From Amphiscolops sp. MND2022 (lineage: Eukaryota): a stretch of 64,000 nucleotides of DNA. Of the stretch, positions 12,043-46,500 are shown one piece after another. Location of the stretch: positions 25,670,001 through 25,734,000 of the forward strand of contig OZ076409.1 of assembly GCA_964187785.1 (NCBI GenBank), given 5' to 3'. The notes beneath the pieces are model-generated. The model saw only the letters and a list, made by a program, of their open reading frames with translations. It had not been told where the DNA came from and searched no databases. Every line of letters starts with the position of its first letter. Positions within the stretch are counted from its first letter, which is position 1. A program made the translations under genes and the position numbers.

Positions 12043-12046
<4 letters not shown>

Positions 12047-12229
12047 AGAGTGTGAGAAGAGAGTTTTGAAAGATGTAAACTTAAAGCTTTTAAGTTTATT
12101 CCAAACTTCAATAGCGTGATGCTGCCAAAATTGTCTTCTTTTGCATGGCCTCTGAAGTTTCTGTATTTTGGAGGAAGCTTTAGCTTTCATACATACCAGC
12201 TGCATGAGAGCGTCGCAGGTAACTAAAGT

Positions 12230-19190: not shown

Positions 19191-19756
19191 GAGGGCGTCA
19201 ACCGACCAAATTCCATTTAATGAAACTGCCAAGAAACAAAATACTTACTAAAGTACTGTGATTGATTTCTGTTTTGCATAGGGTTACGATGAAGAATCCG
19301 CGCTATAAATTTTTTTGGCTTAGTTTAGTGCAATATACTATATTTTGAGCAGTACGCATTATATTTTGAAGATCGCCACGTGATGTTTAGTTCATTGATA
19401 TCCAGTGGGCGGGTCCCGAGTTGGTGCCCTTCTGCCTCAGTTCGACGATTCAACGTTGTTACCAAGACCAAACCGTTGTCGTTGTTTTGGCCGTGCAGAG
19501 GCCCAATTCAGAAAAAAGATTTTAACTTAGATTGGCAAGACTGTAAAAGAGTTCTTAAACTGACTGTCGTGTTTCCAATTTTATCAGGTGCCTTTTGAGT
19601 TTGCAAGCCTTTGTGCGAAAAAGATGCTAAGAAAAGATAATATATTATTGACGAAACTCTGCCGTGATGCTAAGTTAGCTCTCAACGTCGCAAATACACT
19701 CTGGGTGCAAGCATTCTCTCGTTTGCCGAGGACGACAAACTGCGGCTCGGGGAGAA

Positions 19757-20364
19757 TGTAACGTCAGCCACAGGACGAGAGCAAAAAAAGGACGAGAGCA
19801 AAAGAAGGAGATCAGAGAGGACGAGCATGAAAAAGAACGAGATTATGTCGAAAAACTTAGAACCGACAGAGTGTTGTGCCATCTCTCTGGGAAAATGCCC
19901 GAAAAGACAGAACAACGCCAGAGGCAAGAACCCGATCATTGACACCGAACTATAACTATACATTTTATTGGGGCCTATCCCCACTTATTTTACTGATTAC
20001 GGAGTGCTTGGACGATGTCTGACCTAGTAGGTCTTTATTTCAATATCCGATTTCCAAATCCAATGTGTTTCAGTAAGATACCTTTTTGGACCTCTGAAGT
20101 ATGTAGGGGGTTGCGGAAACACGCTGGAAACCTTAGGAATTGTTTTTACAGGCTTGTGGGGCGTGTCCGAACTTTCAGAGTGTCGGCACGTCGCCTCGGA
20201 GCTCTAACTAGAGGAGCCTCCTTAGACGCAAGAAAAGTCCCCCTAGGAGACCATTTTGGGAACAAAAACTAGTGTATAGGGTTGTAGTAAGACATTGGTC
20301 TCCTGTTTAAGCACCCTAGGCATTCTCCCTCTTCCTAGATGTGCGCCGCTAGCCGGACGTTACA
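19757..20364 (+). repeat. 3' LTR of element 1 (608 bp)
   Basis: Perfect 9-bp terminal inverted repeat TGTAACGTC/GACGTTACA, immediately after a polypurine tract. Confidence 0.85.
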
Positions 20365-21777: not shown

Positions 21778-22717
21778 TATGCAACCTAGTTGCCACTCTA
21801 CATTTTTACAGTACATGAAATTTCGACAACCCATACATTTCATTGTATGATCCGTAGTACGAATTGCACAATGAGGTCCGTGATTGTACGATCGTGCTAT
21901 GATCTCACAAGATATGGATTTTAGTGTTGAGAGAATCAACCTGTGATAGTATCATGGATACCCTCAAAGATGAATATTTGGTTTTCATTCACGAGCAATT
22001 TCATTGTGTGTGATAATGCTACTTTCCACAGAATAATTTGTTTGATACAAAGATTTCGTTGCAAGGTCTTGTTTGCAACGCTCATCCGAGAAGTGTTGGA
22101 CAACGTTTGATTTCAGGCTGAAGACAGCTATGGGAGTCAAATTGAAATGATAGAAACGTAAAGGTGAAAATAATGGTAATCTTTCTAATCAAAGGGACTA
22201 AATTTGTGTACTGCGATCTTTTTTTTTCTGGCAGATGCTAAAAATTTGACTTCGATGATGATTTCTTTCATTTCTGTCAAGTTTGCTGACATTAAAATTT
22301 GAATATCTTGACTTATTAATCTACTAAAATTGGCTTTTTTTTTCAACTAAGTTAGTGGAGCCAGTGAAAAAGTCACAGCACAACTCTGCCACACCCACAA
22401 AAATCAATGAATGCGATCAACTATTAGTGGGGTTGGAGATTCAGGACTCCATTCCCTATTTCTCAGTCAACACTGCTCGACCCAATTCATCAAATTTTAG
22501 TTACCAAAATGTTTCGAACTTCGGATTTATACTATTATTTGCTACTTTTGTGAATGGTGCTTTACCAATTGCTAATCAGTGTCTTACTTGAAGTTTCAGT
22601 TTTGTTATTGTATAATGTTCATTATACTTTAGGAAGATTGAATAAACAGAAATTGATGCTAATCGAACCAAGAAAAAAGAAACAAGAAAATGAAACCAAC
22701 ATGTTTTTTTTACTATC

Positions 22718-24356
22718 TGTCGCAGGCTGCCGCCTGCGATGGCAACATTTACACGATTGACCATACGAAGCCAATCGCCCTACCTGGGACGCTCCCATTG
22801 TAAACCAAAACTTTCAAACATTTAGTATTATTTTGAACATGTAATATTGATTGATGAATTGTATTGTTATTTCTTATGTAAAATACATTTGACAGCAAGC
22901 CATACTGACAGGCAGAAAGGAAACGTGTTCAAATGTTTGCCTGCTCAGTATGGCTAGCTAAGCCGCCTATGGTCAATTGGCCAATCAGAGTGCAGTTTGT
23001 AATAGCCATCTTATTACTTATTACGTAACTGTGCTAATAACTATTTAGAATGGACCAAGGCGGCCAACTAACTTTGCCGGCCTTATTGTGCTCTGATGCT
23101 ATACTTGAATGGTATTCAGTAATTACAAATAGGACGAAAGCGGCTATGCGACATAGCCGTCCCTATTCACTGTATTAATTGTCTTGGTGCTATGCAGTAA
23201 ATAAGGCCTATCATGGCCGGTTGGCACGATGAATACTCAAATGCTGTATACTTGCCATATGAAATTGGTATTCCAGTTAATTAGTGGTTTGAAGATGCAA
23301 ATAACCCACCCCATGCAATAAACAGATATATACACTGTTAACATGTAATTGTTGCTTTCTCACATTATGATAGGACCGAATTAGAAAACCCCAACGGTCA
23401 TAAGCCGAATAGGGCCTTCATGAATTGTTGAGCATGTAAACTGTTGCTTGCATGAATTTTACTTGTAAACAATTTGACCCATATGTGGAAGAGACTTGTC
23501 GGGCCTTTTGATCTAGCCGCCCGCACAAGTCTAAAATGATGTCATGTTGCTATTAATAGTTTCACTGTATCTATTTTTAGCTTGTGTGCTATTTTCAGTA
23601 ACGTGACTGACGAAATCTCAGATGTCATGCTAACTTGAGTATAAATACGCCCAAGTTGGCCATAAGACTCAGTTGATTTATGATACGGTTGATATTCAGT
23701 TATTCTTATTCGATTTGTACAAGAATCACTGTAGACCAAGCTCTATATTGTCCACAGGAACAATTCCCATATTTACTCCTGGAAAAACATTTTCAATGCC
23801 TTCTACAAGGAGACAAAAGGCCAAGTCTAGGAAATCAAGAGAATTAGATATGTTGTCCGACTACGGCAATATGGACGTGATGTTAGGTGAGAGAAATTCT
23901 AACTCTATAGAAAGAGAACTCGATAGTTTGATTAACGTCCCCGAGGGACAACAGGACTTTCAGTCCTTTCCGAATAGAGAAAATTCATCTCAAGAGAACG
24001 AAATCAGAGACATTGATAGCAGAAATGAACCAGTTAGGGAAAGTAGGCTAGTTGAGTCTATCAATACACTATCTGGAGAAATGAACGCTAGGATGTCACG
24101 CGAGATGGAAGCTATGATGGACCTAATGCAATCACAGATTAGCAGGGCCATTAGTTCCGCTATAAGCGAGAGGATTATCCCAGAGATACAAAATATGGTA
24201 GAAAATTTGCCTTTGGGTCGACATGGCGTTGAGCCGTGTACGTCCGCGGATGAGGACGGAATCAGAAATGTATGGAAGAACGCAAATACAAATTAACAAA
24301 GAAGGATTCAAGGTCCGCTTGTGATCTGAGAGACCACATGGACGTTAGTCCTTACA
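22718..24356 (+). repeat. 5' LTR of element 2 (1639 bp)
   Basis: TGTCGCAGG...CCTTACA; direct repeat of 37295-38889. Confidence 0.97.
23640..23674 (+). promoter_or_regulatory. LTR core promoter: TATA box plus Inr
   Basis: TATAAAT at 23640 and TCAGTT at 23669 (A 31 nt after the TATA start); gag ATG 125 nt downstream. Confidence 0.7.
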
Positions 24357-24374
24357 TGGTGACAGGAGCTACCG
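24357..24374 (+). promoter_or_regulatory. Primer-binding site
   Basis: TGGTGACAGG... directly after the LTR's terminal CA; absent after the 3' LTR; cognate tRNA not established. Confidence 0.8.
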
Positions 24375-25487
24375 AACTCCAACAGCCGATTCCTGAATTC
24401 CTCACAGGACGAATTCACTCTCAGCCAGACCTCCAAAGACAACAATCCACTCATGATATAACTCTGGATACAACTCTGCCAAGAACAGTACAACTCCGGC
24501 AGAACAGCCACAAGACCCTATCAACCGATTGGCAGATGTCCTGGTAAACCTCCAAAATAAACCACACTCGATGACAATTAGACCAGTCACGACGAACCCC
24601 ATGACATTTGACGGCAAAACAGAGAAATTTGAATTGTTTGAAGATTTTTTTCATACAATGATAAAGATGCAGCCCGCTATGACTGAAGAAATGAAAATAA
24701 ACCATTTTCATTCTCTGCTCAGAAAAGGAGCACTGCAAACTTTCCGAAATATAAACTCCATAAACCTTCAAACATTAGAGGACGTATTGGTTATATTCCG
24801 CAGAAAGTACGTCAAACCTGAGTCCCAGGCCACAGCTAAACACAAATGGCATAGACTCATCTTCGACCCCAACACAATGAAACTACCCGATTTTCTTGAG
24901 CAACTCAACCAGGGTGCCGAGAAAGCCTTTGGGGAAATCGCCAAAAGCATGATCGACAGTCTCCTGTAAGCTAAATTACCCCCAAAACTCAAAAGATCAG
25001 TAAATATGGCTCGACTGGAAAACGGGACCTACGAGGAGATTGTAGCAAATCTGGAAAGAGAACTCGAGTTAAACGCATTAGAAGAATCTGACGACCTACC
25101 CATTGCTACAATGGCTTCGTCGTCCAACAAATCCCGAAATTTACTATCCAATGGCATTGACACCAACAAAAATAACCAATGCTCATACTGCAAGGCAGAG
25201 GACCACTTCTGGAAAAATTGTCCAAAACTGAAAAAGAAGAAAGAATCAGAGGCCAAAGATGGCAAGAGGCCTCAACGACAAACTTACCCAGAATGCCCCA
25301 CCTGCAGCAAAACCAATCATCCAGCAGAGAAATGTTGGCGTGGCGCTGGTGCCCACCTTCGTCCAAAAAGAAATCGACAAGACTCCTCCAAAGATACGGA
25401 GCCCTCTGAAGACGAAGGCACTCGCACCAAGAATGAAAAATCCACAACATCCTCATCAGGCCAATCGAATTCCAAAAAACCTGAATC

Positions 25488-25494
25488 AAAAAAC
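25488..25494 (+). promoter_or_regulatory. -1 ribosomal frameshift slippery site A AAA AAC
   Basis: Directly before the gag stop; the -1 frame is open and in phase with the protease once the MITE is removed. Confidence 0.8.
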
Positions 25495-28400
25495 TAATTT
25501 TGCCACGACTCCAAATCTCTGATCAAATGTCGATACGACAATATGTCATATCAGACCCAGCTACTATCGCCTACAAGCAATCACAAAAGGACATCACAGG
25601 GACCCCATCGACTGTCTGGCAGCAGCACATTATAAGACACAACTTTCACGAACCTCAAAAGTTTATTAAATATCCTTAAATGCTCCACAAGGGAATTTTC
25701 ACTGGGAAAATCGTATACGGAATCCTATTTTTAATAAAATTTCAAGCGCATTAGGATTATTATTACAAAGTATCAAAATTACCTATTTTGGTTATTTGTA
25801 AAACTTATAAAATGGGGGAAACGTTTTAGAGTCCTTAGTATACAGTTTATAAGGAATCCTGAAAACAGTTAGATATAAGGAAACTTGATGCATTTCCCAT
25901 GTATTAACAAGTGGAAAAAGTATCAGTAATACTTATACTTCAATGCAAATTGGCTTATAAGGAATACTTATGCATTTTAGACACGTAAATTTACGCGCAC
26001 TTTGAAAGTTGTGTCTTGTAATGCAGATGGTGGAAGCCTGTACTCAAACTCAATACATTATCCACAGTGACCACCCATACTTATATTGACGTAACAACCT
26101 CACTAAAGACTCAGAAACCCAATTCCGACCCTTACAAACTGTCGAAGACTACAACCCCCAATACTACGACCTCGAGTAAGACAAAGACCCGTACTGGGAT
26201 GAAGATTTATACGATAAACACAATTTACAATTTCGGAATGATGACTACCCGCCAACAGACGATGAGGATGACCCTGACATAGTAGACACCATACTGTCCC
26301 GGGCACTTATCGAACCGTGGCAACCAAATTTTGATGCAATCAAAGATCAGCCACATGCAGAAGAGACACAGACCACACCTGGCCTCCTCGACGAGACAGC
26401 CTTCATACATGTCCTTGTAACTAAAGAGGGAGAACCAGCGTACATACCATTATCCACAAACCTCGGACTCAAATATAAAAAACGGATGCTATATTTCCCG
26501 ATGGACTTTGGGGAACTAACCATAGACGGCCTCATAGAGACTGGAGCTCACTCCAGTGCAATACCGGAAGCAGACCTCAGGAAAATACGCCTCTTGGCGC
26601 CCCAATCCATAGTCAAAGAGGGACCTGCCCCGACGTTTCAAATTATGGTCGCAAACGGACAATTGGAAACCCCAAAGAGCACTGTTGAACTCAAGTTCGA
26701 AGTCGGAGATATCGAATTCCATGAAATATTTATAGTAATGGAAAAACTGACTGGCCCTATCATAGGACTGATGTTCCTCCAGAGGAATCATACGGTACTG
26801 GACATGCGACAAGGCATACTCAATCTCCCATATTTCTCGATGCAACTCAAAACGGCTGACCATAAATATTCTAATGTACTGGAACCAATACTTAACCCAG
26901 ACGATATCACAATACCACCCAATGACCGTATCTTAGTAGAGATCAAATCCCAAATCTACAACGAAAATACGGTCACAGGAGTGCTACAGCCCAGTGATCT
27001 CCTCCATGAAGAAGGAGACATCACATTCTGTGCCGCGATAGTCACATTGACTAGTGGAAATGTCAACGTTCAAATCAACAATTTCACGGACCAACCGTAT
27101 AAGCTTAGAAAAGGGACTACACATAGCAAACTTTTCTGTACTAACACCGGAACAGATGAAACACGTCAAACCAATTGACCCGGTGTCCACATGGCATCTC
27201 CTCAATGAAAATGAAGAGGATGCGATCTACTATGTCAGTAGTCTCCTCAAGGCTAATCGGAACAATGATCAATATGAACAGTACTGGTTTCCTGCGCCAG
27301 AAACCCAGGGGACGAAGATTCCCATACCCCCATCCAACGATCCAACGACGAATTCTTCAAGAATTACGAAACCTCCAAGAAGCTGAACTATTGAACCCTC
27401 AAAATGATGATGAGTCACGCCGCAAATTCCTTAGCAATTTTGACTGGAGAGACTCCATGCTGCAACAACACGAAATCAAAAAGATCGAATCGCATTTAGT
27501 CGAATACCATGACATATTCGCACGATACAGATTTGACATCGAAATGAATGAAGAATTCACGGTCAAACTGACCCCTAAGGACGATTCGCCCGCTTACAGC
27601 CAAAGTCTTCCAACTCCAGTCAATTTAAAAGAGGACATACTCGTCGAACTGGCCCTCTTACACAAACATGGCATAGTAACTACACTGCCATTTTCGAAAT
27701 ACGCCAGTCCCAAATTCGCACAGAAAAGCCGAATGGGAAGCTAAGACTTCTAGTCGACCTGAGGAAAATTAATAACCTCATTTCGGATGACTATATAAAC
27801 AACAATCATCCGGTTAGTACCCTAACGGACGCTGCACAACATATGGCAGGAAAGAAACTATTCTGTAAACTTGATTGTTCACAGGCATATCACTGCCTAC
27901 CAATGGCGGACCAAAGGTCCGTTGAGATGCTTGCGTTCAACTTTGCAAGCCGCACCTTTGCGTATCGACGACTTGCTCAGGGCCTTAGCAGGGCATTATC
28001 AGCATTTTCAAGCTTTATGAGGGAATACCTCGATAAAGTTATCAAAGCTGATCAATGTGCCCAATATGTCGACGACATTGGCATAGCCGCCAATGATGCG
28101 GATCATCTCATAAAAAATTTGAAAGCAACCTTTGAGTGCATTAGGCATGCTGGCCTTAAACTGACAATGCACAAATGCCACTTCGGGGCAACGGAGATCA
28201 TTTTCTTGGGGAGAACAATTACTCCGGCGGGAGTCAAACCACAAAAGGAGCGAATAACAAACTTCCTAGAAAAAACCAAATTCCCCAAATCTAAAAAGGC
28301 TCTACAAAGATATCTTGGTTTCCTCAATTATTACAGGAACTATATCCCAAGATTATCTGAAAAATTAGCTCCTTTCTTTCAACTTCTCAAAAAAGACGAA

Positions 28401-31133
28401 AAAGTCCTGGTGACCACAGAACTAATACAACAGTTCAATGAAATCAATCGGGACCTCGACAAATGTAGCCAATTGGCCCTGAAGCAACCTTTGCCAAACA
28501 AGCAACTGGTCTTGATGACAGACGCTAGTTTCACAGCGGCCGGCTACGCCATACTTACCGAAGACGACCCAAACCAGAAATATTCATCTGTCAAAAAATC
28601 ATACGCTCCAATTGCATATGGCTCAAAAACTTTTACGCCATCGCAACTCAAAATGTCCATATACGCCAAGGAATTCTTAGCAATTTATTACGCATTCGAA
28701 GAATTTGGACATATTTTCTGGGGAGCCCCTAAACCGATTACCATCCTCACGGACAACAAATCGGTCACGAGATTCTTCCAGACGAAGATAATCCCTCCAA
28801 CACTCTGGAATGCATGTGACTATGTAATACAATTCAATTTTGTCATAGCACATATACCATGGAAAAACAACACAGCAGCTGACTACTTATCTCGCATAGA
28901 AACGGACCCCAGAGAGAAACTAGTCCTTAAAATCCGAAAAGACATAGAGACTAAGCCCATCGAGGTCAATGTCCAATCAGCAGGCGTAGCTGAAGAGGAA
29001 CAGGTTTTCTTCACGGAGCAAGATGATGAGACAGAAGCTCAAATTTGGGAGCGTAAAAAACAAAGCCGAACTAACCCAATCGACCAAGAAGGCGTAATTC
29101 AAATTGACGCAATATCTGAAAATCTAGTAGATGAAATTACGAACTTTACCCAAAAAATGCGCAGAACGAACCAAGTTTTACTTGAACAATCCAAAGACCC
29201 TATACTGCGCCAACTCAAAGCCAAAATTCAAAACGAAGACTATTCTGAAGAACTACTCCAGCAAGATATCCGATACAAACACTACCTTAACAACTTGGAC
29301 CGAATAGTCCTTGAAGACGAAATAGTCACACGACAATATTATGATTAAACTGGACAAGTCAAGTATCACCAGGTTCTCTTAACAAAACACCTTTTGACAG
29401 AATTGTTACAGGCCCTACACGGAACGGCGCACAAACACCCTGGCATATCGAAAATGTTACAAGAAATCCGACAGAAATATTACTACCCTGGTATAGCAAA
29501 ACATGCTAAAAAATGGGTAGAAGGATGTGTAGCTTGCGCAAAAGATAAAAGGGTTCCAAACAACACGATCACACCTGAATTGCTTAACTTGCCAGAATGG
29601 GACCTTGGACCAGAGGATGCAATGCAAATCGATTTACTCCCAAACCTACCAACAAGCGGGGGTTACCAAACAGTGATGACAGCAATAGAAGTCTTTTCAA
29701 GATATCTGTTTGCCTACCCGCTAGTTGAGGCAACAGCCTCCAACACGGCAAAGGTCTTAATAGACATCATGACAAAGCACTCATATTTGCCAACTACGAT
29801 CATCACCGACAAGGGAACCGCTTTTACATCAAAAATTATTGCAGAGATAACGCAAGTATTGGGATAAACATTAAAATGTGCGACGACTAAACATCCACAA
29901 ACAATTGGCAAACTCGAGAGAACTCACGCCTCATTGAAGACAAATTTGAAACTAACCTCAGGGGAATATCGCCGTCAATGGCACAAATATTTGCCGCTAG
30001 CAGTGCTGAATTATAACACAACTTATCACTCCAGCATCGGTTGTGAACCGAGCAAGGTCTTTCACGGAAGAATTCCCTATATTGTTCTTGACCATAAACT
30101 TGGAAATAATCTTAATAAGGATTTCCTCCCGACTACTGAATTTGGTGAAGAGTTACAACAGAGAACGAAAGTTCTCATTGACAAAACGAAGCATAACATT
30201 ATGCAGTCCTACTTGAAATATAAGGAGTACTATGACCGAAAGGCCAAAGCAGCTCCTCTCAGTGAACAAGATTTTTGTTTTATCCTACAGCCTAAAGCGG
30301 ATAATCAAGGATCAAAAATACCATTCAGAGAATATCGCTGGATCGGTCCTTATTGAATTGAAAAGGTATTACCTAACGACAATTACATTGTCCGCCGGTT
30401 AAATACGAATAAAACACAGATATTACACCGAATCCGCCTGAAAAAATTTGTTCCAAACACGCCCTTAGAGGACAATTAAGCCAAAGAGAAATTGCAACCA
30501 GATGATGAAATAATCATACCGCAAGATGATTTATACACCATCTCATGGGAAGCAGATTTTGACTACCATGTCTTCGATCCGAGACGAGACGATAATACGG
30601 ACGAAGAATCGCAAACACCAGACAGCGATGCTGGTGTCACGACTAGTGATTACGTCATTTATGACAACGCTGATGACAACGCGGTAAGGCCGGGGACGGC
30701 CACCAGCCGAGAAGGCACAATTACACGAGACGCAAATGACGTCACCGAATTGAATGAACGAACCAAAATGAATGAAAATGAAGCGGGACCGAGTACGGCC
30801 GCTAGCCGAGACACACCTATAGTGCATGACGAACATGACGTTAACAAGAATGCTGCGCGAGAAGAACAAAGCAGCGAAACAGGAAGGCCGAGAACGGCCA
30901 CTAGCCGAAATAGCCACAATACACCACCTAGTTCAGAAAAGAACGTGAATGACGTCACAAATGAATTAGAAGGCGAGAAAAACTCTCTTAACGAGGGGGA
31001 TGATATTACCGTGCCCGGAATATCGAACAAAAAAGCAAATGAAAAAACTGATGAAAACTCTAGCCCTAGAGGGGGGAAATACAACCTTCGACCTAACCCC
31101 AATCCCAACTATACTGATGAATACAGATACTAG
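25494..31133 (+). pseudogene. pol: pol (protease, dUTPase-like, RT, RNase H, integrase), disrupted
   Basis: LIETGA (protease site D>E), QYVDD (RT), MTDAS/KEFLA/TDNKS/ADYLSR (RNase H), LH..HKHPG..CVAC, QIDLL, ITDKG, KLERTH (integrase), WIGPY; several stops and frameshifts. Confidence 0.95.
25628..26023. mobile_element. CACTA/EnSpm-like MITE inserted in pol
   Basis: 21-bp TIRs CATTA(T/C)AAGACACAACTTTCA; 2-bp TSD CA; removal restores WQQQMVEA in the pol frame. Confidence 0.9.
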
Positions 31134-31308
31134 TCAGAAATGATAAATTATGTCCCTATTTATGTTCTTGCCTAATAAGGCATGTTTTTGACTGGGACTA
31201 CTCTGACTTCTTTGACTCAAAAGAAACTAACTATATAAATATGAAAACAAAACAGAACTGAAATTTACAACTCAAAAGTTTAAAATGGCGAATGTACACT
31301 ATGTACAT

Positions 31309-34300
31309 TTAACTTTTAGAGCTTCCTTCTCGCAATTCTTGCACTGTCTTTGACAACTCATCAGCAGGGAGATCGCCGAAATAAGCAAGTTTTTGTGCTT
31401 GGCCGGCAGCCCATTTAATCTTCCGAATAGCAGTAGTGGACACAGAGGACGAGCGTGACGCAGTACTGATACCGACAACAGGAACACTTTTCAAGCTCTT
31501 AAAAGCACTGGTGAGATTCTTTAAGAATTCGGCCCGGCCAAACACGTCAGCGTGGACCCAAGGGTCACCAGCGAAGTGTCTGGAGCTGAACTGTCCCTCT
31601 AACTCACGATACTGGGCCAAGGCGGACTCAGTAGTGCAATTGGCAATTGCTTCTGGGCAGTTTGACAAATACGACTGTGCGGGCAAAATTATTGCAGAAA
31701 GTCGACTACTGGAGCTAGAAGTATCTACATCATGGAATTTAATGGTCGGAAGTTCCTGATGGGCCTCAGTGATACAAAGACAGCATAACCGGAAGAGGTG
31801 GAAAAGCCTTGAACGGCTACGAAACAATGGCATAACGATAAGGAAGTCCAACATATCAACTATTGTGTTGGGAGCATTTTTGACTGTGCCACAAGTATTT
31901 CGGAGAAGATCGATGAACTCGAAATACTCTTCTTGGTAGTCACTCTTAACGGCTAGATCCACCCAACCACGGAGGTGGAAGCTATCAAACAGGGCGTTGA
32001 AGCAGAAGGTAGCCTGTTCCAAAGGAAGAGAGAGGAACACGTGTGGGTCGAAGCAGCCCATACCGTGTATAATATCAGCGGTGAAATGGATGTCCTCCAA
32101 CAAAGCTTCCAATAGAGAGACAATGTAAGCGCGAGCTTCTGTCCCAACTTTTTCCTTCTCCCTAGCGACCATTTCTTCTAGACTGGCAGTGGGAGCCTTG
32201 TCAGCAGGGAAACGCTTCACTTTAGCTTGGCAAGCAGCATCAAGGTCAACGGTAAATTTGAGTTGATTCAAAAAATCGCGGCAAGATAGCTGTCTCAGAT
32301 CGTCAAGGCACAGATGGAGCAACTTTGTCCACTCAATGTCTCCAGGGATGTACTTGGGCAGAATGGCTCGGTGGCACAATTTCCTCACGTAACGGCAATA
32401 CTGTCCGTAAACGAACAGCGCTGAGTCACGTCGCTATGCCAGACTGCGCTCAAAGCATTTGGTATCTAAACAAACGAAGTCAAAATTGAGTCCTAATATG
32501 TGATAATCTAGTGAGGTCTCCTACCTTCTCAATCACTAATGACAATCATGATCAAATTCCAACATTAAAGGAAAAGAGACAATTAGGGCTCAGCTTTACA
32601 ATGAAGAAAAATGACTAACAATCACGGACTAGAAGGGACAAAAGTTCTAATTTAGCGGTGAACAAATCGTCCTGGATGATCTCCCACTCCAGACTTTGTG
32701 GCTAAAAAGAAAAATTATATGAGAACTGGGTCGACAAGAAGGATTACTTCACATGAGGGTGTTTGGCAAATTAAATGGACAAACAGAAGACTTGTACCTT
32801 GTTTCTCACTCCTTGCATCACTTGGGTTGGTGCCAATTTCGTCAAGTAGTCGTGAATGGTAGACCAATTCTTTATGAGTTCAGTGCAAATTGTCGGGACC
32901 TTTTTGAGGTCCAGGTCACAAGCTGCGGATGCCTGCAAAAGAATAATCCTCATAGTCATGCTATAAGTCAGGAAGACAAAGGACCTATGGGCTGCAATGA
33001 AAATCAGAGAAACGATGGTTACATGAGGTAATGTCAACAGAAATTTAAGTTGGACCCACCTTACACAACTCTGGACATTGTGGGGCCCATGGCTGACTTG
33101 GACTACCGCGGAGAAAGACGACTAAGTATTTCAGCTGCGAGAACATATCAATGCGGCCAAAGACATGGGTAGTCTGAAGGGCATTTGGGTGCATCAGGTC
33201 AGGCAGAGAAAAGGCTTCAAAGCGGAAGGGATATTGGATTCCGTGCTCATATAGTTTGGAAGATTCAAGGGCCTGGAACGCCATAGAGGAACACCCGGAG
33301 ATGCTGACTAAATTCGGCTTGGAGGAAACGCAAGACAGCAAGCACGATATGGCAGATAAACAGCAATCGGGGTACGCATCAGACTGCAGATGTCGGTGAA
33401 GCTCTACACGGACGAGTGAGTCCCCCCTCCAGAAGCGGATTGACATACACCGATAGACACCAGCTGTGGTGAATTCAATGGAATACATCCCAGTGGCAAT
33501 GACTTGACTGGAGATGTCAGCTAGCCCCCGCATGAAAATGTGGTGGAAGATGTTCTGAAATGAAAACGGATAATTAAAGAAGTTTGAGACCCACCGACCA
33601 ACTGGGCCTATATTTAGATATGAACTACAGAACTACTTACGGTGAGAGTGGCAGGTCCCCAATCGAATGAGGAGAAAAGGGCTTGATGGTTGGTGAACAC
33701 ACCGACCTTTGTCCATAAATTCTGCAAGAGCGAGAGGTTGCCATCTTGAGGCACGAATGTTCCAATTAGAGAAATGAGGGTGCTAGTTCGCAAATCGCTG
33801 GGATTGGTGATTCCCCCTATGCTGGCCATGTAGTCGTCGTAAAATGGATAACGGCCTCCCGCATCGATGAGTGGAGCGTCTATGAAACGGGGTTTCTCCC
33901 TTTCCAGCTCGAAAGGAGTAAGGACATAACCGTCCTTCCCCCTAACTTGATGTGTGACGATTCCAGTATTACTGTCTGTCTCTTGCAAATGAACATAACG
34001 CCATTTTTGATCTTTCCGCAGATGCCCTTCTTTCTGGTAATGGCGCAGTATCTCCCTCGCCCCTTTGGAGTAGATGGACACGTTAGTCTTACACAACATA
34101 CAGTAGAACTTGAATTTGTTGTGAATCGGGTCGACGGGTCCAGTCACAAAGGTCCGGGTCCATTGGATGCTCTTGAAGTACGCATCTTTCATAACCTTCC
34201 CTGGCTTGCTCAATAATTTCATTCTCTTCCGGGGAGGGCTACGTGGCAATGTCTCCATATCTTTATTCCGGGCTAAAGCAGATAAAGGTTGGTAGTCGGT

Positions 34301-35358
34301 GCTGCTGTACCCACTACCCGATGTAGGAGTAGCGTTATCAGCTCGAGACGTGCTGGTACGAATCCCCAAGCTTGTTACGGGGGTGAGTGTTAGAGGATCT
34401 GTTTCGCTAACTACTTCAGTGCCAGAAATCGACCCAAGCTGGTAAGGATCCTCGTCAGAGTTTATGGCACCACTCGTATAGCCATCACTCACATTTCCTT
34501 TTTGGCTGTCTTCCTCCCCTGAACTCTCAGCAAGATGGCGGGCTGGGGTAGGACACCTTCGGGGCAATTTCCTCTTTTTGTCCTGAGAAGTCCCCGTTGC
34601 GGCATGTAAAGGTAGGGATTTCATCTAATGATATGAAGAAAGAGCGCTTTCGTCGGCAACAGTTCTGAGGATAGCGTGCATCTGCTCTTGATTGAACGCA
34701 ACGGTAGAGTGCCCAACTGGTAATCGGATTGGTGTTGCGGCAGTAAAATATTTACGGATGATGGTTCGTCCTTTGGCTGACAACTGTCTATCGCTGGATT
34801 CAAGCATAGCCCGGTAAGCTTCTTGCTCCTCATCACTGTTCCCAGCCTCTAAGTGAAATTCCCCTTCAAGGTCCGGAAAATCCTCAGGATTCAATGTAAC
34901 GCTTCGGGAAACAGGAGGGAAAGCAGCAACTCCAGAGCTGTTCAATAACTCCTCAGCATCAGTGGTGTCACCATAAAGTGGTGCAGCCCCTTCTTGGGAG
35001 GCAATCTCTTCTTTGTCATCAGGCCCTGTGGGGCTAATTGGCCGACTAGGAGTTATAACGATGGCTTCTGAGACCGAGACCTTCTGGAAAGCAAAATCCA
35101 TGGTGGACATTCGGGGCACTGCACCTTGTTGAGCAGGGAGGATTGAAACTGATTCCCGCTCAGGCAGGTTCATCTCTGCGACGGTTCTTTCGATGAAAGC
35201 AGTAACGCTCTCATTAGTGGATCGACTACAATTGGAAGTCTGAGAAGACGGACGAGGGGGTCAGTAGTATTCGCGGGCCCTATGTGCTCAAGGTTATCTT
35301 CGTTGGAATTGTTGATTGTGGGAACAGTGGATTCTGGCAAAGCCTTCGTAGACGACAT
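31309..35358 (-). pseudogene. Antisense intron-containing gene: BED-like zinc finger plus degenerate hAT-transposase-like body
   Basis: Exons 35358-33641, 33554-33060, 32932-32798, 32701-32620, 32465-31309 joined in frame by GT-AG introns; FYCMLCKTNVSIYSKGAREILRHYQKEGH; stops at 34625-34627 and 32434-32436 and a frameshift near 35170. Start codon uncertain. Confidence 0.8.
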
Positions 35359-36542
35359 GCCTAAGCAGAAGGAAATAAATTTTTGCGGGCAACTTCCTGA
35401 AAACGTGTCCATATGTACCGCAGTAAAACCTTCCGGAAGTGAAAAGAAAGCGATATTGAAATCATTTGATGAAAAGGACAGGAAGTACCTGAACGAGAGG
35501 AAGAGCCTTGATCAAGCTCATTTCCGTTCAAAATTAAAAAAGACCAGATAGCTCACCTGAATTAATTGTCCAATTGAAGATTGAGCAGAGATGGGAGATC
35601 GTTCCGATTGAGATGATTTGTTACTGATTTTCCTAAAGGAGCTGGTGCGGGACGGTAGAATGCCCAGGTGGGACCGTATCGGTAAGGGTGTAAAAATGTG
35701 GCTTTCGTAGTCAAGCCTGATTCCAAAGTGAGAACTGCTGTTGACCCAAAGGGCAATCGATAAACCAGACCAGGAATGGTGAAAACGAATTAAAGGGCCC
35801 TCTAATGAATTAAAGATAAGAAGAAACTAAAACTGACTGTGATACTGAGTATACAATGGATAAATTCGAACATGGAAATGTAACAATTAATGAGTTGGAA
35901 GAAGATGAGAGTGATTGCAAGAGCAAAGTTGGAGTTCGTGGCAAACTGGATTTGTTGTCAAATATTTTTACAATTTTGAGAATTATTGTATGGATGGAAT
36001 CTGCCAGAGAAATCCACATTAGTTATATTTCGAAACATGCATTTTCATTATTTTGTTATCTTGGTTATTTCATTATTTTTAGTTATTTTATTATTTCCTT
36101 ATTTGGATTATTATTTTTAATTCCGCCATTTTGGAAAGCGGACAGAGTGGGCGATTCCCATTGGCTGTCGCGGCGATGCGCCGCGCGTGGCCTTAAAACT
36201 TCATCACCCTCTCTTAAAATTCTCAAGTTAATATCAAGTGGAGATAAACACTAGACGAAGTCCTTGAAGGTTCTTTGCCGACTTAGGCAAGCTGAAGTTG
36301 ACCGTCGGTCAACAAAGCGGAAGGCGGTCTATATCAAAGAACATCTTGGAAAGTTTAGTCAATGAAACATGATGCGGGAAACAAAAGACCGGGAAAATGT
36401 GAAGCCAAACCATCGAGAAATTGAGAAATGAAAATCGCCATTTGCTTCCTAACTTTCAAACTAAACAGTTGCTCTACTCAAACAAAATTAAAATTGTCCT
36501 ATTGCATTCAAAATTGCAAAAAAGATAATAAAAGATAGATTT

Positions 36543-37380
36543 ATGGCTCAACGATTTCGTGAAGACTTCATTGGCGCAGCGCCCGAGGGCGTAGATATTA
36601 TCTGCCTGTCCAGCGACGAAGAGGAGGGAATGTGTGACCTAAGCATGACTTCGGTGCTAGACCTTCAACTGTCATCGGAAGACGAAGAAGAAATAGATGA
36701 CGAAATCATGATGATGGCCCAGTGTGTCGAGATGGAATTATCATCGCCCATCCCAGTGCCTGGTCCATCCACAGCGCTGAAAATTAGAAACGAGGCCCCC
36801 CGATATAACCCACCAAGGTACGGGACCTCCGGGGCGAGTTTTGCAACAAGGCCTACTCTTGACCAATCCTTCTTCTCATTAGGAAAAGGAAACGACCCAA
36901 TACGGCGAGACGACCGAGTGCGCAATAATCACCCTATCAAGCTGTGTAGGGAAATCATTCCCATGGTGGACACTCCCATGTCGCCCCCACCAGAAGAGAA
37001 AGGACCAACTTACGACACCTATTCAGCGGACGGTCAGGGCGAGATTACCCAGCAGTCATTGGACGCAGTTGCAAACCATTTCCAAGGAATGGAGATTGAG
37101 ACGAACAATCCTATGGCAAATTACTCAGTTGCGTGATATGTGGGAAATCTACATTACAAATCCAGAGTGAAGCAGTCACAGACTACTTGCGCAAGACGGC
37201 CATTTTGGGCGAATCAGCAGATCAACTAGAAGCGCGCAAAAGAGCTTTTTTCAAGGAATGCAAGTGGGCACTTTCTTATTACTACCAGGGGGAGTGTGGC
37301 AGGCTGCCGCCTGCGATGGCAACATTTACACGATTGACCATACGAAGCCAATCGCCCTACCTGGGACGCTCCCATTGTAA
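36543..37380 (+). pseudogene. Accessory sense ORF overlapping the PPT and U3
   Basis: 197-aa open frame MAQRFRED..., continued after frameshifts near 37128 (CVICGK) and 37250 as QGMQVGTFLLLPGGVWQAAACDG...TLPL*, stop 37378-37380 inside the LTR. Confidence 0.7.
37287..37294 (+). promoter_or_regulatory. Polypurine tract
   Basis: AGGGGGAG immediately before the TG of the 3' LTR. Confidence 0.85.
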
Positions 37381-38889
37381 ACCAAAACTTTCAAACATTT
37401 AGTATTATTTTGAACATGTAATATTGATTGATGAATTGTATTGTTATTTCTTATGTAAAATACATTTGACAGCAAGCCATACTGACAGGCAGAAAGGAAA
37501 CGTGTTCAAATGTTTGCCTGCTCAGTATGGCTAGCTAAGCCGCCTATGGTCAATTGGCCAATCAGAGTGCAGTTTGTAATAGCCATCTTATTACTTATTA
37601 CGTAACTGTGCTAATAACTATTTAGAATGGACCAAGGCGGCCAACTAACTTTGCCGGCCTTATTGTGCTCTGATGCTATACTTGAATGGTATTCAGTAAT
37701 TACAAATAGGACGAAAGCGGCTATGCGACATAGCCGTCCCTATTCACTGTATTAATTGTCTTGGTGCTATGCAGTAAATAAGGCCTATCATGGCCGGTTG
37801 GCACGATGAATACTCAAATGCTGTATACTTGCCATATGAAATTGGTATTCCAGTTAATTAGTGGTTTGAAGATGCAAATAACCCACCCCATGCAATAAAC
37901 AGATATATACACTGTTAACATGTAATTGTTGCTTTCTCACATTATGATGGGACCGAATTAGAAAACCCCAACGGCCATAAGCCGAATAGGGCCTTCATGA
38001 ATTGTTGAGCATGTAAACTGTTGCTTGCATGAATTTTACTTGTAAACAATTTGACCCATATGTGGAAGAGACTTGTCGGGCCTTTTGATCTAGCCGCCCG
38101 CACAAGTCTAAAATGATGTCATGTTGCTATTAATAGTTTCACTGTATCTATTTTTAGCTTGTGTGCTATTTTTAGTAACGTGACTGACGAAATCTCAGAT
38201 GTCATGCTAACTTGAGTATAAATACGCCCAAGTTGGCCATAAGACTCAGTTGATTTATGATACGGTTGATATTCAGTTACTCTTATGCGATTTGTACAAG
38301 AATCACTGTAGACCAAGCTCTATATTGTCCACAGGAACAATTCACATATTTACTCCTGGAAAAACATTTTCAATGCCTTCTACAAGGAGACAAAAGGCCA
38401 AGTCTAGGAAATCAAGAGAATTAGATATGTTGTCCGACTACGGCAATATGGACGTGATGTTAGGTGAGAGAAATTCTAACTCTATAGAAAGAGAACTCGA
38501 TAGTTTGATTAACGTCCCCGAGGGACAACAGGACTTTCAGTCCTTTCCGAATAGAGAAAATTCATCTCAAGAGAACGAAATCAGAGACATTGATAGCAGA
38601 AATGAACCAGTTAGGGAAAGTAGGCTAGTTGAGTCTATCAATACACTATCTGGAGAAATGCAATCACAGATTAGCAGGGCCATTAGTTCCGCTATAAGCG
38701 AGAGGATTATCCCAGAGATACAAAATATGGTAGAAAATTTGCCTTTGGGTCGACATGGCGTTGAGCCGTGTACGTCCGCGGATGAGGACGGAATCAGAAA
38801 TGTATGGAAGAACGCAAATACGAAATTAACAAAGAAGGATTCAAGGTCCGCTTGCGATCTGAGAGACCACATGGACGTTAGTCCTTACA
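37295..38889 (+). repeat. 3' LTR of element 2 (1595 bp)
   Basis: Copy of the 5' LTR with a 45-bp deletion, one extra base and roughly 8 substitutions counted by eye. Confidence 0.97.
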
Positions 38890-38995
38890 CTATCACATCG
38901 CGGATTAAAGTAATAGACGAAGTCCTGCGAAGAATGATATTTTAATCAGCTAATAATTACTTTTATCGCAGCTACTAGAATAAAAAGGTATTTAA

Positions 38996-40835: not shown

Positions 40836-42160
40836 TACTAAAATAGTCAAGTAACTAAATAGTGAAGTGACTATAGTCAAGTGATGGAGCGTGGAGATTT
40901 GGCAGAATTTGGAAAAAAAACGCAACACAGATGATGATTTTCCTCCCCAATGAAAAGGTGGGTCGGAAAATAACAACTAGTTCGAACTAGTTGCTGATCA
41001 GCATTTCTTCGTTTTTGACGTTTCCCTTCAATTTTTGAGCGATCAATTCGATTTTCTTTTCAGTTATTTGAGCTTTCACAGTTGAAAGCATTACAACGAA
41101 ATGTAGCTCTGAGTATTTTGACATTCTTTTGTGTAGCTATCGGGTTTTTGCAATTCGAACAATTCTTGTGATTTCAATTTATAGCTCAAAAAGTATTGAC
41201 AATTATTGAAAATCTGAAACACAGCCGGAGTGGGCGGGGGGGGGGAGTTTTTTTCGTCAAATTCAGTTCACTACATAGAAACCATTCGAGACCTTTTTCT
41301 CTTCTAATCGCAAAATATGGTCAGTAAAATTGAACTTTCCATTATTTCAAAAGTTTTTATGTCAACATTTTCCTCATTTGATAGCAATCAGCGCCTCTCA
41401 TTGCAACTATTATTTGTCATTAATGAAAATCACAAGGTTTCAATCGATAATCCTAATTTGAATGGTTTGAAATTGGAAGAAATGGGGCTACCAGTTACCT
41501 AAAATACACAATTGATTTTCTATTTAGTTTTTATTCGATTATGATTTCAAATTATTGTTGAGATTGGCTATTTTAAGTCGGAGAATCTTAATCTTTAAAG
41601 GATCCAGATATGTACTCAAACGTGTGACACTCTTTCAATTAGATAAAACGTTTCAACAATCACTAAAAATTGATTTGGCATATAATCATTTAGGTTGGCT
41701 TATGTCGCTATATCATCTTTTAACATCAACCATCGCCAAATTTGAGTCTTATTTCGGGCAGGTTAATTGCGCCACTTCAATCAACTTATTATTTCTAACC
41801 GACTAGGAAGGGCAACAGTTTCAAATACCGGTTAAATATTAAACGTTCACTTACAGGTTTTTGAAAAATTGCGCAATTATAGTCAATTTGAGTCTAGCTA
41901 GGTATGCCTCAAGTAATTAATTAATGATCACTAGCAGATATTTAGTTTGAAATGGGAAAAAAAGATATCATTCAAACACTCAGCATCATAATCAACAACA
42001 ATCAAAACTTCGTCCGGAATCATTCAAACAATAATTAGATACTTCAAAAACATTTCGCAACTGTTGGATAACTGATACCAATACCTTGTAATACTTCCAA
42101 ACACATCGATTGACCTCCTAGTATTTATATCTCGATCCATAAACGCACTCATAAATTGTA

Positions 42161-43015
42161 ATGGCACCCAACCACGATAGTTTCACGGTTTCCGACGACG
42201 AAGCATTTTCCTATAACCAGTTTCCACTGGAGTTGGTCATCGTGGGTCTCAGTTTGGATATAGAACCCAGAAGGCACCCTTTCCCAACTCCTGGCTTGCA
42301 TTCTTCCAGCCCCTGGTACTCGAACACTTCTTTTCCTCCCATCGAATACCCCCAGCCGGTTTCTCCGTCGATCTGGGATAATGACGTCCAGTTGTTCAGT
42401 GAGGATCCGGATATATCTGGAATTGATGAGGATGGTCTGGATTATGACTCAGATGCCGAAACAGAGCCTGGAAGTGATCCCATTTATATCGACAATGGCG
42501 ACAGAGGAGTAACGTACGTTGCGCAATTCGGTAGAAATTATAGTCTGTATTTTGAAATGACTCCCATTAACCCAAATGAGAGGTACCCGCGTATTAACAG
42601 AAGACGCCCATTGTGGGGTGACAGATTTGACCTGTCGGAAGATAAGGAGAACATCGAACACGAAGACGACAGAGATACTTATGTCTTCGAACACAGCCCC
42701 ATTCTGATCAGAAGACCATTTGAACCCAATTGGACACGAACTCACAATCTGCCAGCTGCCAGCCCAAATATTCAAATGTCGTCAACTGTGAGAGCTTGTT
42801 TGTTTCATGACGCCTCTTCGGTTCTGAATGAGAGGCAAATCTCCGAGGAGTTTGGGTATTCCGCAGATGGTTTTGACTTGCAAAGTTCCCAAAATGAAGA
42901 AAACCCAAATAACCAGATACCCCGGGCCGACTTTTGTGTCAATTTCCAGCTAGGTGAATGCTGTTTTGGCGACAGATGTTCTTTTGCTCACGATGCGACC
43001 CGATTTCCGTTTTGA
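42161..43015 (+). CDS. Single-exon 284-aa acidic/Pro-rich protein with C-terminal CCCH zinc finger
   Basis: Intact ATG-TGA ORF, GC-richer than its flanks; CVNFQLGECCFGDRCSFAH fits C-x7-C-x5-C-x3-H. Confidence 0.65.
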   Translation: MAPNHDSFTVSDDEAFSYNQFPLELVIVGLSLDIEPRRHPFPTPGLHSSSPWYSNTSFPPIEYPQPVSPSIWDNDVQLFSEDPDISGIDEDGLDYDSDAETEPGSDPIYIDNGDRGVTYVAQFGRNYSLYFEMTPINPNERYPRINRRRPLWGDRFDLSEDKENIEHEDDRDTYVFEHSPILIRRPFEPNWTRTHNLPAASPNIQMSSTVRACLFHDASSVLNERQISEEFGYSADGFDLQSSQNEENPNNQIPRADFCVNFQLGECCFGDRCSFAHDATRFPF

Positions 43016-43538
43016 GTGCTTGTGTCATTGTATTAGTTTTCACTTTTAATCACTCCAGGAATTTTCCTAACCTGACCGACGACGTGACTCATTCTTTAAT
43101 TTGTGAGATAATAACTGTCATCGTGCTAATTCGATAAACTGCGCTTAACGTTCAATAGTCATCAAAAATTCAAAAAAAATCAAAATCAAAAAAATCAAAA
43201 CGCAAAAAAATTATTTTTTACTTATTCACTGAATTTGGAGGGTTTCCATTATGGAAACTGAGCCCTCTTTTCTCTATTGCATGTACACATGCCGTAAATT
43301 ATAATTGGGACCATGTGTCTTGTTTCCCCCAGGTACACCTTGTTTCGAATCCCCCCAACACAGAAGAATGTTATTCTTGAACAAAACTATTTCAATAAAA
43401 AAGGGTATTATTGAATGTGAATACTTCGAGGATTGTCTAGACACTGTTTGACACTTCCAGGCTCTATTGACACTTCCAGCAAAAAACGACCCTAAGTTTT
43501 TGACAATACTGTCCAAACTAGCAAAAATTCACGTCTGG

Positions 43539-46500
43539 AACAAGGTAAAATTGTATAAAAAGTCCCCCATTTCAACGCAAATTTTCTCCGCCATAAAATT
43601 TTAAGAGGAACATTTAACTCACAATGTAAAAGATAGGATTATATCGACATCAATTATTTTATTGGAACAAAACTTCAATGCAAACGATGTCGACGTAATG
43701 GTATTTGAACATTGTTTCATTGTTTCTTATGCAGCCAAATCCATCCCCCCGCCGGCTTTTTGGGAAGGAATAAGACACATGGTGCTATAATTGTGCCTTA
43801 AACGTATGGTTCTCAAATTACTTCATTTCTGTAATCTTTTCATTCCAGAGTTTCTACAATTTTCAACTTACGATTCCGAATCTTGAGATTACAATGCTTT
43901 CATGTTTCTATTTACATACTTACACGTCTCACCTACCCGAAGCACGTGCGTTTTTGCACTTTTCAACTCGCCTTATTATTGCAGTTGCTTTATACTTGCA
44001 AGTTAAAATTTTCAACAGATCCTTACTGCAAGTTGCAACTTATTAGCCGTTTTTTTAGTGAACAACGAACGTGGTTCGTCTTCATATCATTGTTGTATTG
44101 TGCTAATAATGGAGTTGCAAAACAAAAGCTGATACCAATAACTTGGTTTTGTGGAATGTGACGTGGTATCCTTTTAATGAAAATATTAAAAACTAATTGA
44201 AATATGGTAACGAATTGAACTTGAGTGTTTTCAAGCTATTTCTGTAATTTTTGATCCCCTCGAACCGCCATGGGGGATGTACAAACGGTTAAGTTCACTT
44301 TTTCTGATAGACTGAAATGTAATGTAATGAAAACAAATTACCTTTCTACTTTGAAAATAGTTTTCCATCTGCTAAAACAGCAAAAGTATAGGAGTATAGT
44401 TAAAAAAGTATTTTCATTTAGGAAGTATAAAAGGATTGAACGAAACTACTGAGAACTATGCAAAATAAGTAACTGAAAAAACAAAGAAAAATTTGGAACA
44501 TTGTTAGCGATACCCTCTGACCAACTATGAAAACATGGTATTCTCCACAATTATTCAAAAAACGCTCATCAGTTCCACAGCACCAAAAAAATATTCAATG
44601 AGGCCACCCTTAGAGACGGAAAAAGGTTTTCCTCACAGAAAACCACAAAATAAATTTTGAAAAAAAAATTAAAATTTGCTGGCAAAACGCTTTGTTCATG
44701 CTAGAAATCTAAATCGACTCTTCGCTTGAAAACGTCGCATAGGCCAAAGAGTAGTTAGATACCAAGTTAGGCACTAAGGTATATATATGCTTACAAAAAT
44801 GTGTCAATTCGCTTGTCTTTAAAAAATATATTTTGATATCGATATTTTCGAACCCGCGCCCATTCCTTAGTAGAACGCAAGTTCTGATATAGCGTGCTAC
44901 GCGGACTAAAAATACGGGGACTAAAAACAGGTTACATACAAAGCCAGCTTCAAAAAAAACTTTCCAATCGGAGAACCTTCCAGGGTGGAACGAATTTCGA
45001 GTCAAAGCTTTTTGTAACAAAAAAGCCCAACTCTTAAAGAGGCAGGGTTTTTTCAAGACCACCGACCTCACTTTTAGTGGTTCAGTTTTCACAGACTTTA
45101 TGCTTCAGTTCGAAAAGGAGCCCAATGAGGCTAATGCCTTTAATTTTTTCAGTATTTACCGTATCCTCGAAAATATTGAAGACCACAGTGCCCCCTTAGG
45201 GCTTTTTCGGCGACTTTTTTCACAGAAACTCCTAAAAGGTTCCTTTTTAGTTTTTGATATTTTTGAATAGGAAAAACATTTTAAGTTCAAAAAGTCCTCC
45301 TTTGGTTTTTTGGCACTGTGACTTTTCGGCAAACTTCGATTTGATTTTTCTTTGATGTTTTCAGTTATGGAAAAACATTTTTTGAGCTCGAAAGGCTTCG
45401 ATTGGTTTTCGGTATTCTTTTGAGAAATTTTACTCAAAAACGCTTTTAGGAAAAACGTTGCGCTTTTTGAGCCTCAAGATGGACGCCGACTTGAGAGGTT
45501 CCCGTCTTGTTTCCTGCTAGTGAAGAAAACGAAATTTAAAAAAAGGCCTCATTCAACTTTCTTTAAAAAAACTGAAATGGAAAAGAATTATAAGAAGACA
45601 CTGTGACACGCCAAATGCACTTTGTTCAGCTCTTGGATTTAAGTTTTTTTCGACGAGAAATCGCCCAGTGTCAATGCCATCTTTTAATACTTGCCAGGAA
45701 AAATTTTCAAACAAATGCACAGTTCCAGAAAACCCAAACAAAGACCTTCTATTCTATGCTCTCAAAATTTCTTCTTTTATCAAACACGTTTAGGAAATCA
45801 AAGTGGGGAACCTTCGGTATATAACAAACCGGTATATAAAGTTATGAAAAAAAGAGGGGATACTTGTATCTCGTCTACCTTTGGAAACATTGAAAGAAAG
45901 TAGCACAGCGCACGATTCGAAACCAACTCTTCTAGTTCCCATCTCTAGTCATCACGCAGAGAATCCCGCGTTAACCCTAATATTTTTGCCAAAACGTTCT
46001 ACAATGCGTTCTAGATTTCCAGCAGTATATAGTAGTTTCAGTGAGAATTTGTAAGATAAAAACTTTCGAACCTGTCTCCAGAAACATAGATTTTTTTTTA
46101 CAAAAAGACGAAAATCAACAATCGATGTATCAGGTTACTTGGAAAGTGACATGCTCATCTGCTAGTTTTATGTCGGTCAAGTGGCTGTGGAGAACAGGTA
46201 ATATCCCAACATTAAAAAAGAAGGCGGTTTAGCCAATCTAGCAGCAAACAGGTGTTATCGTTCCCTCAGAGATAGCGAAGTATAGCTTCTCTGTAAGTTT
46301 GTTCCAGTTACACTATCTACCTAGTATAAATCAATTTAACGGCACGGAAAATTTCGTTAACTTAATATTATCCGCTGTATGATAATGACTTCTTGATTTT
46401 TTTTGGATGATGCAGCCAATCAAATCTGAAAACCAAAGTGTCACAGTCCAGGCCTGGACTGGGTGGAACTGCAAACGTATCAGCATCGGGAGTCTTTTAA

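Follow-up and report, generated by a model that had tools for sequence, protein, structure and literature searches.

A 3′ accessory gene of a Ty3/Gypsy retrotransposon with a conserved SIM-like motif: a candidate SUMO-binding protein

At the 3′ end of a Ty3/Gypsy retrotransposon lies an accessory ORF that, judged from the sequences of its relatives, is a real and old gene with a deep family behind it. Near the N-terminus of its product a hydrophobic core is followed by CK2-type serines and acidic residues, and this site is a formal match to the SIM class SIMa in 71 of 74 near full-length relatives, drawn from 142 proteins. We consider it likely, given such patterns, that the accessory protein binds SUMO through this motif, with phosphorylation as the switch. 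A fuller reading, which we hold tentatively and as possible rather than probable, draws on the analogy of viral regulators: the protein may be a CK2-switched SUMO-binding adaptor or decoy that helps the element escape SUMO-dependent silencing.

The host element and its accessory ORF

The window, by which we mean the whole 64,000-nucleotide stretch of DNA that was analysed, holds the element at 22718-38889 (16.2 kb). Its host, a eukaryote, is probably an animal, perhaps an acoel flatworm. Two LTRs, TG...CA ends and a 5-bp target-site duplication are all present, and the Pol domains recognised by Pfam run in the order PR-RT-RH-INT, which is that of Ty3/Gypsy. The LTRs are 99.5% alike, differing by 8 substitutions over 1594 aligned bases, one 1-bp indel and one 45-bp indel. 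On the 3′ side of pol come about 4 kb of antisense ORFs, a 1.1-kb spacer and the sense accessory ORF, as follows.

22713..22717, no strand: 5′ target-site duplication CTATC; the same 5 bases stand at 38890-38894
22718..24356, forward: 5′ LTR, 1639 bp, TG...CA; holds the last ~28 codons of the accessory ORF
24357..24370, forward: putative primer-binding site (TGG...), directly 3′ of the 5′ LTR, from the sequence
24357..31133, forward: decayed gag-pol with several stops and frame changes (Pfam; tblastn)
31309..35260, reverse: antisense ORF block in pieces of 211, 336, 195 and 374 aa; CxxC...H...H finger-like motif; weak hAT-dimerisation lead
35400..36542, no strand: spacer that parts the accessory ORF from the divergent antisense block; includes a T-rich tract as well as a CpG-rich patch that has CCAAT and one presumed YY1-like site
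36543..37136, forward: accessory ORF piece 1, matching residues 1-195 of unbroken relatives; stop after ~197 codons
37127..37255, forward: accessory ORF piece 2, in the second frame; CxxCG at 37130-37144 and a predicted helical hairpin
37255..37380, forward: accessory ORF piece 3, in the third frame; its tail, of GxSQAAACDG type, crosses the PPT and enters U3, with the stop codon at 37378-37380
37287..37294, forward: polypurine tract (PPT) AGGGGGAG, an 8-nt purine run inside the ORF, within the P-G-G-V codons and adjoining the LTR TG at 37295
37295..38889, forward: 3′ LTR, 1595 bp, TG...CA
38890..38894, no strand: 3′ target-site duplication CTATC

Within gag-pol, 26486-27740 contains three or more frame changes and 27903-31130 four stops; these breaks, like those in the accessory ORF, could be either real lesions or assembly errors. 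That gag-pol is broken despite an LTR difference of 0.5% might mean that a defective template was mobilised in trans, that the LTRs were homogenised or, again, that the assembly is in error. A weak dUTPase-like match (window 26900-27160; Pfam, E 0.0038) lies between protease and RT, a position that is reported for Burro elements too (PMC6431247). Each LTR (23796-24356; 38373-38889) holds the start of a long ORF with a basic N-terminus, MPSTRRQK..., which begins some 520-560 nt short of the LTR end, with TATAAA upstream of it at 23640 and 38217; this is likely gag starting inside the LTR.

The antisense block returned no Pfam match; its ORFs are broken, and it includes a basic RKR stretch. The Atlas clusters nearest to its C-terminal part carry the hAT dimerisation family at a score of 0.89, under the 0.9 mark and a lead only. 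The block is possibly a captured transposase-derived gene, placed head to head with the accessory ORF. In the spacer that separates the two, window 36040-36200 contains a T-rich tandem tract and then CGCCATTTT, which we take to be a YY1-like site, together with a CCAAT box, in a patch rich in CpG (o/e as high as 1.6). These features make the spacer a candidate divergent promoter, for which CCAAT is weak evidence because it is frequent across the element.

The sense ORF, at 36543-37380, crosses the PPT and ends 86 nt (37295-37380) inside the 3′ LTR. What a first-pass annotation had read from its letters holds up in detail. Both N-terminal motifs that it named are in frame from the ATG at 36543, VDIICLSSDEEE at 36591-36626 and VLDLQLSSEDEEE at 36654-36692; CVICGK, the CxxC, lies in the second frame at 37130-37147; and the C-terminus, whose PGG codons are the PPT and which was said to stop 86 nt into the LTR, reads GGVWQ...LPL-stop in the third frame and ends at 37380. 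The two frameshifts it had postulated are both real frame changes in this sequence, three frames being used along the ORF. Alignment with natural unbroken relatives, which the three pieces match at 91-98% over the in-frame stretches, puts the breaks near 37127 and near 37250-37260. At most, this copy encodes a product of ~197 aa that includes the motifs and lacks the Cys/helix core. The annotation was also correct that the 5′ LTR base gives S (GGVSQ) where the 3′ LTR gives W; the W is found in P0002 as well, and S in most of 27 aligned relatives.

A deep protein family and its probable overlap with the LTR

A search with the N-terminal piece identified 72 relatives among 153 candidates, and a profile built from 18 unbroken relatives gave 371 protein matches among 50%-identity clusters, the best 150 of which were examined. 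In a second profile search 144 of 7999 proteins scored as matches, and the best 120 of the 144 were added. From 409 proteins, 189 were counted, each of at least 235 aa and with an in-frame core (the 220 others were shorter or had no in-frame core), and these form 19 families at 60% identity. Natural unbroken relatives are mostly about 250-320 aa long and the family representatives 256-322 aa; identity to the near family drops to about one third in local alignments. Over eight representatives, identity is 0.78-0.79 in the conserved blocks versus 0.28-0.35 in the variable linkers. Large clusters among the relatives have 136, 138, 70 and 66 members. The ORF has thus been maintained, a point on which the annotation's proposal hinged and which the 72 relatives, the 371 profile matches and the alternation of conserved blocks with variable linkers all bear out. 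In one large family (P0507, P0514, P0484, P0490 and P0479), some copies have an N-terminal extension of 70-80 aa that probably comes from an upstream in-frame start.

Comparison with Pfam gave nothing convincing (best E 0.0038, in 2 of 82 members), PDB sequence searches were empty or weak, and the Atlas offered no usable match for P0006, a result that speaks neither for novelty nor for absence. DNA of the relatives was not found in viral or metagenome contigs.

Two regularities in the proteins of the relatives suggest that the overlap with the PPT and U3 is a family-wide trait. Ahead of the conserved SQ, 281 of 285 proteins have V, L or M, the very residues that codons ending in TG can specify, TG being also how the LTR begins; and the tail that follows SQ is 28-33 aa long in 250 of the 285. 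The high conservation of the tail may in part be a constraint on the LTR end. An accessory ORF that overlaps the PPT and U3 is also known from retroviral nef and from MMTV sag, to which the present ORF is alike in position only.

Motif 1, its neighbours and the layout of the protein

The sites on which the functional proposal bears are these; SIMa, SIMb and SIMr are classes as published in PMC3395311.

36591..36626, forward: motif 1, phospho-SIM-like site with CK2-type serines; formal SIMa IICLSSD at 36597-36617
36654..36692, forward: motif 2 (VLDLQLSSEDEEE), which narrowly misses both SIMa and SIMb and is not retained by distant families
36696..36716, forward: motif 3, DDEIMMM, residues 52-58; formal SIMr match where a predicted helix begins, aligning with DSDIEVI-type sites of the clade in which motif 1 is lost
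36972..36986, forward: [ST]-P-x-S-P double proline-directed phosphosite; P145, S147 and P148 invariant, position 144 S or T in 28 of 28 rows

The annotation had spoken of tandem SIM-like motifs and had named their conservation in relatives as one of the points on which the idea would stand or fall. For motif 1 both claims survive: it is a formal SIMa, kept in the near relatives as given above, and 13 of the 18 divergent representatives retain a hydrophobic core with SSD behind it. For motif 2 neither does, as it belongs to no SIM class: none of the 74 near full-length relatives has it as SIMa or as SIMb (their SIMr matches lie elsewhere), and it is degenerate or absent outside the near clade.

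Across the 19 family representatives, SIMa occurs in 12, in 11 of them at the place of motif 1, where shuffles lead one to expect 0.8, and a formal SIM of any class occurs in 15 versus 1.6 expected; the families share descent and are not 19 independent trials, so that the shuffle expectation serves as a yardstick only. All eight families with at least four members carry a formal SIM, and the four families without one are singletons. SIM patterns are short, and the published SIMa pattern arises by chance in 4.7-6.4% of shuffles of four relatives and has three occurrences in 81,483 aa of 120 Pol relatives. A stricter pattern, optimistic in that it was drawn up after the motifs had been seen, matches only the sites of motifs 1 and 2 in the 127,996 aa of the six-frame window translation.

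The way in which motif 1 varies is informative. In the 13 representatives that keep it, the core is I, L, V or P at position 1, I or V at position 2, C, Y, I or N at position 3 and I or L at position 4, followed by S-S in all 13 and D in 12; over the eight nearer representatives, core identity is 0.41 and similarity 0.76. Letters that change while their class stays appear to be the signature of a linear motif under selection, here a SIM strand. The site lies in a region predicted to be disordered and accessible (pLDDT <50 at residues 12-26). A complex predicted for P0006 residues 8-66 with an animal-type SUMO stand-in (L035) scored 0.01, in a run that used no alignments and had no controls folded beside it, so that the score counts neither for nor against binding.

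In one clade (P0301, P0322, P0344 and P0352; support 99/96 in a tree of 28 rows built on the C-terminal part only) the core of motif 1 is lost. Three of its four members have a canonical reversed SIM at the place of motif 3, and P0301 has neither motif; the swap belongs to a single clade and is one event. A SIMr match, by the pattern [DSE]3[ILVM]x[ILVMF]2, is carried by 69 of 74 near relatives, and the reversed-SIM-like site at residues 52-58 is a better candidate for a second SIM than motif 2. In the subfamily of the present element it is Met-rich and modelled as part of a helix (residues 53-67), and for these reasons it would make a poor SIM strand. A further SIMa stands in the middle linker of the representative of a 45-member family and of the singleton P0390. 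Taken as sequence patterns, these cases are suggestive of turnover of SIM motifs, with few events on which to judge it.

The SIMr-class site, the invariant [ST]PxSP and a set of further conserved cysteines go beyond what the annotation had noticed. Two of these, C197 and C258, never vary over the 28 rows, while C200 occurs in 27 of them and C135 in 22; we infer a zinc site on the CxxC/ACDG cysteines, possibly one that is shared between subunits. In the large family with N-terminal extensions, the segment that holds C135 is absent in some members. The N-terminal 66 aa contain 20 D/E and 1 K/R, and a disordered acidic N-terminus is predicted, the model being mostly at pLDDT <50 up to residue 46. 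A first structure model, from 18 sequences, was poor (pLDDT 37.6); one from 82 sequences has a mean pLDDT of 59 and is confident only at about residues 191-243, where two helices follow the CxxC, with a folded helical hairpin predicted at residues ~204-242. Fold searches with this hairpin of ~45 residues, against solved and viral folds, gave no match at E<=0.001 (best Z 5.1, a common helical hairpin).

Several other identities were considered and set aside. An Env-like third ORF is ruled out, there being no transmembrane or signal segment in any of seven proteins examined (maximum 19-residue hydropathy 0.82-1.52). A SUMO-targeted ubiquitin ligase of the RNF4/ICP0 type was rejected because no RING or other E3 ligase domain was recognised: no RING family is among the Pfam matches of 18 and 82 members, and only three or four cysteines are conserved. 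Other short motifs were dropped on the alignments, namely LxCxE, which lacks its Leu at -2; FFAT, since the acids stand on the wrong side and the aromatic residue is not conserved; an Fbw7 degron, the spacing of which is not retained; and a cyclin RxLF, seen in one family only. Of six relatives tested, four lack a consensus SUMO acceptor lysine, and P0006 has no lysine at all before residue 80.

A possible part in escape from SUMO-dependent silencing

The layout of the protein, a disordered acidic string of motifs joined to a small Cys module, recalls that of viral hub regulators, among them E1A, E7 and the HCMV protein IE2, which binds DNA. The likeness to IE2 extends to the motif itself. IE2 is likewise a non-host regulator in which a hydrophobic core (SIM1, CIVI) is followed by CK2 serines (pSer203/205) and acids (10.1101/655282). 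The two differ in that no sequence relation was found, in that IE2 has SUMO acceptor lysines beside its SIM, which the accessory protein lacks, and in that the accessory protein is encoded by an LTR retrotransposon. The viral SUMO-targeted ligases HSV-1 ICP0 and KSHV K-Rta use SIMs to counter SUMO-based intrinsic silencing (PMC3174244, PMC3749962); unlike them, the accessory protein has no recognised RING or other ligase domain, which leaves the decoy or adaptor reading only. Among mobile elements, the VANC proteins of Arabidopsis VANDAL transposons embody the concept of transposon-encoded counter-silencing (PMC12859917), as sequence-specific DNA-targeting factors of plant DNA transposons, unlike the accessory protein, in which no DNA-binding domain was recognised. 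Gypsy elements commonly have extra 3′ ORFs whose function is unknown, and in plants (Grande, RIRE2, Retand, env-like) conserved sense and antisense ORFs, most of them without a known function, lie in the stretch from pol to the 3′ LTR (PMC7264820); the ORF described here is not env-like, runs through the PPT into U3 and carries a conserved SIM. Planarian Burro elements carry a SUMO-like domain (PMC6431247). In the open-licence literature, to which our search was confined, we found no LTR-retrotransposon accessory protein described with a SIM.

We envisage that a separate mRNA from the upstream spacer, or a spliced RNA, would give a nuclear protein of ~280 aa. CK2 would phosphorylate the serines after the hydrophobic core and so raise the affinity for SUMO, as in HCMV IE2, where phosphorylation beside the SIM does so 8-fold (10.1101/655282). 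The CxxC/ACDG cysteines would bind zinc, and the hairpin would oligomerise or hold a partner, making one or more weak SIMs multivalent. The protein could then occupy SUMO on silencing complexes at the element's chromatin, where it would compete with SIM-bearing effectors or bring an activator. We favor a decoy or adaptor over an enzyme because no RING or protease domain was recognised. SUMO is needed in piRNA-guided silencing (10.1101/533091), and the window flanks show no CpG depletion (o/e 0.96-0.98), which would fit host control based on histones rather than on DNA methylation. Targeting to the element is a weak point of the proposal, since no clear NLS or nucleic-acid-binding domain was recognised in the protein; we speculate that the divergent antisense gene, with its finger-like motif and weak hAT lead, could supply it. 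Extended this far, the proposal is of a Gypsy radiation with a kinase-switched SUMO decoy at a nef-like position, in which, as an arms race would have it, SIMs disappear and arise again at other sites and in other orientations, and beside it a divergent hAT-like antisense gene, the whole acting as a counter-silencing cassette of which one part finds element DNA and the other disarms SUMO-dependent heterochromatin formation. We regard this composite picture as doubtful.

A SIM indicates a partner, not a direction, and could equally serve export, integration or self-repression. The protein might be a regulator resembling Rev or the CERV protein of C. elegans Cer1, that is, a nuclear protein, switched by phosphorylation, that collects on the element's genomic RNA and promotes the export or processing of that RNA, with the SIM merely placing it at nuclear bodies or pores. 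CERV too is an LTR-retrotransposon accessory protein, and export of Cer1 gRNA requires that a Ser of CERV preceding an invariant Pro be phosphorylated, and requires a Cys cluster close by (PMC10309623); the present family has an invariant S-P site and conserved cysteines, and the element is a long one, of 16 kb, whose 3′ ORF is separate. By description, on which the comparison is based, the two differ in size, exon origin, Cys spacing and charge: CERV, of 517 aa, has three folded domains and is made from a spliced mRNA that shares gag exons, and the words SUMO and SIM are absent from the main text of its report (PMC10309623), whereas the accessory protein (~280 aa, 256-322 aa among family representatives) has one short confident region and is mostly disordered and strongly acidic, with no long basic tract. 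We judge such a regulator unlikely. To about the same degree we doubt that motif 1 is a CK2 phospho-acidic docking site for the basic pocket of another host protein, the match to a SIM being incidental. Such a partner could be a SPOC, PH or BRCT-type reader or a histone. S23, S24 and D25 are nearly invariant over 28 rows, and S-S-D-E/D persists in the core-less clade; because it outlasts the hydrophobic core, the CK2 patch may serve some partner that is not SUMO. In 8 of 13 representatives, moreover, Tyr fills the third core position, a residue of which a SIM has no need. On the other side, positions 2 and 4 remain I/V and I/L in all 13 while position 3 varies (C/Y/I/N), the alternating pattern of a SIM strand, and three of the four members of the core-less clade have a reversed SIM.

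Two further readings strike us as distinctly improbable. Small disordered phosphorylatable hub proteins act as tethers in some retroelements, MLV p12 being an example, and the accessory protein might travel with the pre-integration complex and use SUMO for nuclear entry or choice of integration site. In favour of this, Pfam found no chromodomain on the Pol of this element; against it, the protein is encoded apart from gag-pol, at the 3′ end, and gives no sign of particle association. The protein might instead be a self-limiting repressor that recruits SUMO-dependent silencing to its own element as a form of copy-number control, in keeping with the repressive action of the SIM-bearing host proteins Daxx and PIAS. 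The IE2 SIM is indeed used in auto-repression as well as in activation (10.1101/655282). Retention of the ORF in the heavily amplified families (136, 138, 70 and 66 members) is more simply explained by a benefit to amplification. Escape from SUMO-dependent silencing remains the reading that we prefer, at the strength given at the outset.

The silencing of transposons by piRNAs and related routes has SUMO as a central step, one that DNA viruses oppose with proteins bearing SIMs. If binding is confirmed, the family would be a defined, peptide-testable case of a retroelement that engages the SUMO pathway, with natural variants in which the motif is kept, lost or moved as built-in controls, and, if the proposal is true, it would bear on the question whether LTR elements use proteins against silencing as well as drift of their sequence. 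Should the protein not bind SUMO, there remains an unannotated family of accessory proteins with a conserved PPT/U3 overlap.

Elsewhere in the window, a second GC-rich (50%) block at 12000-20000 holds unclassified ORFs of 150-320 aa with no Pfam match and is probably another decayed mobile element. A 286-aa acidic ORF at 42155-43015 has a CCCH zinc finger at its end (E 0.0008, below the Pfam cut-off). Large near-identical repeats at 43400-56100, with spacings of ~2985, 4835 and 7730-7820 bp and 97-100% identity, are either a recent tandem duplication or an assembly artefact. At 8717-8898 there is a 90-bp palindrome, 98% perfect, with a 2-nt spacer.
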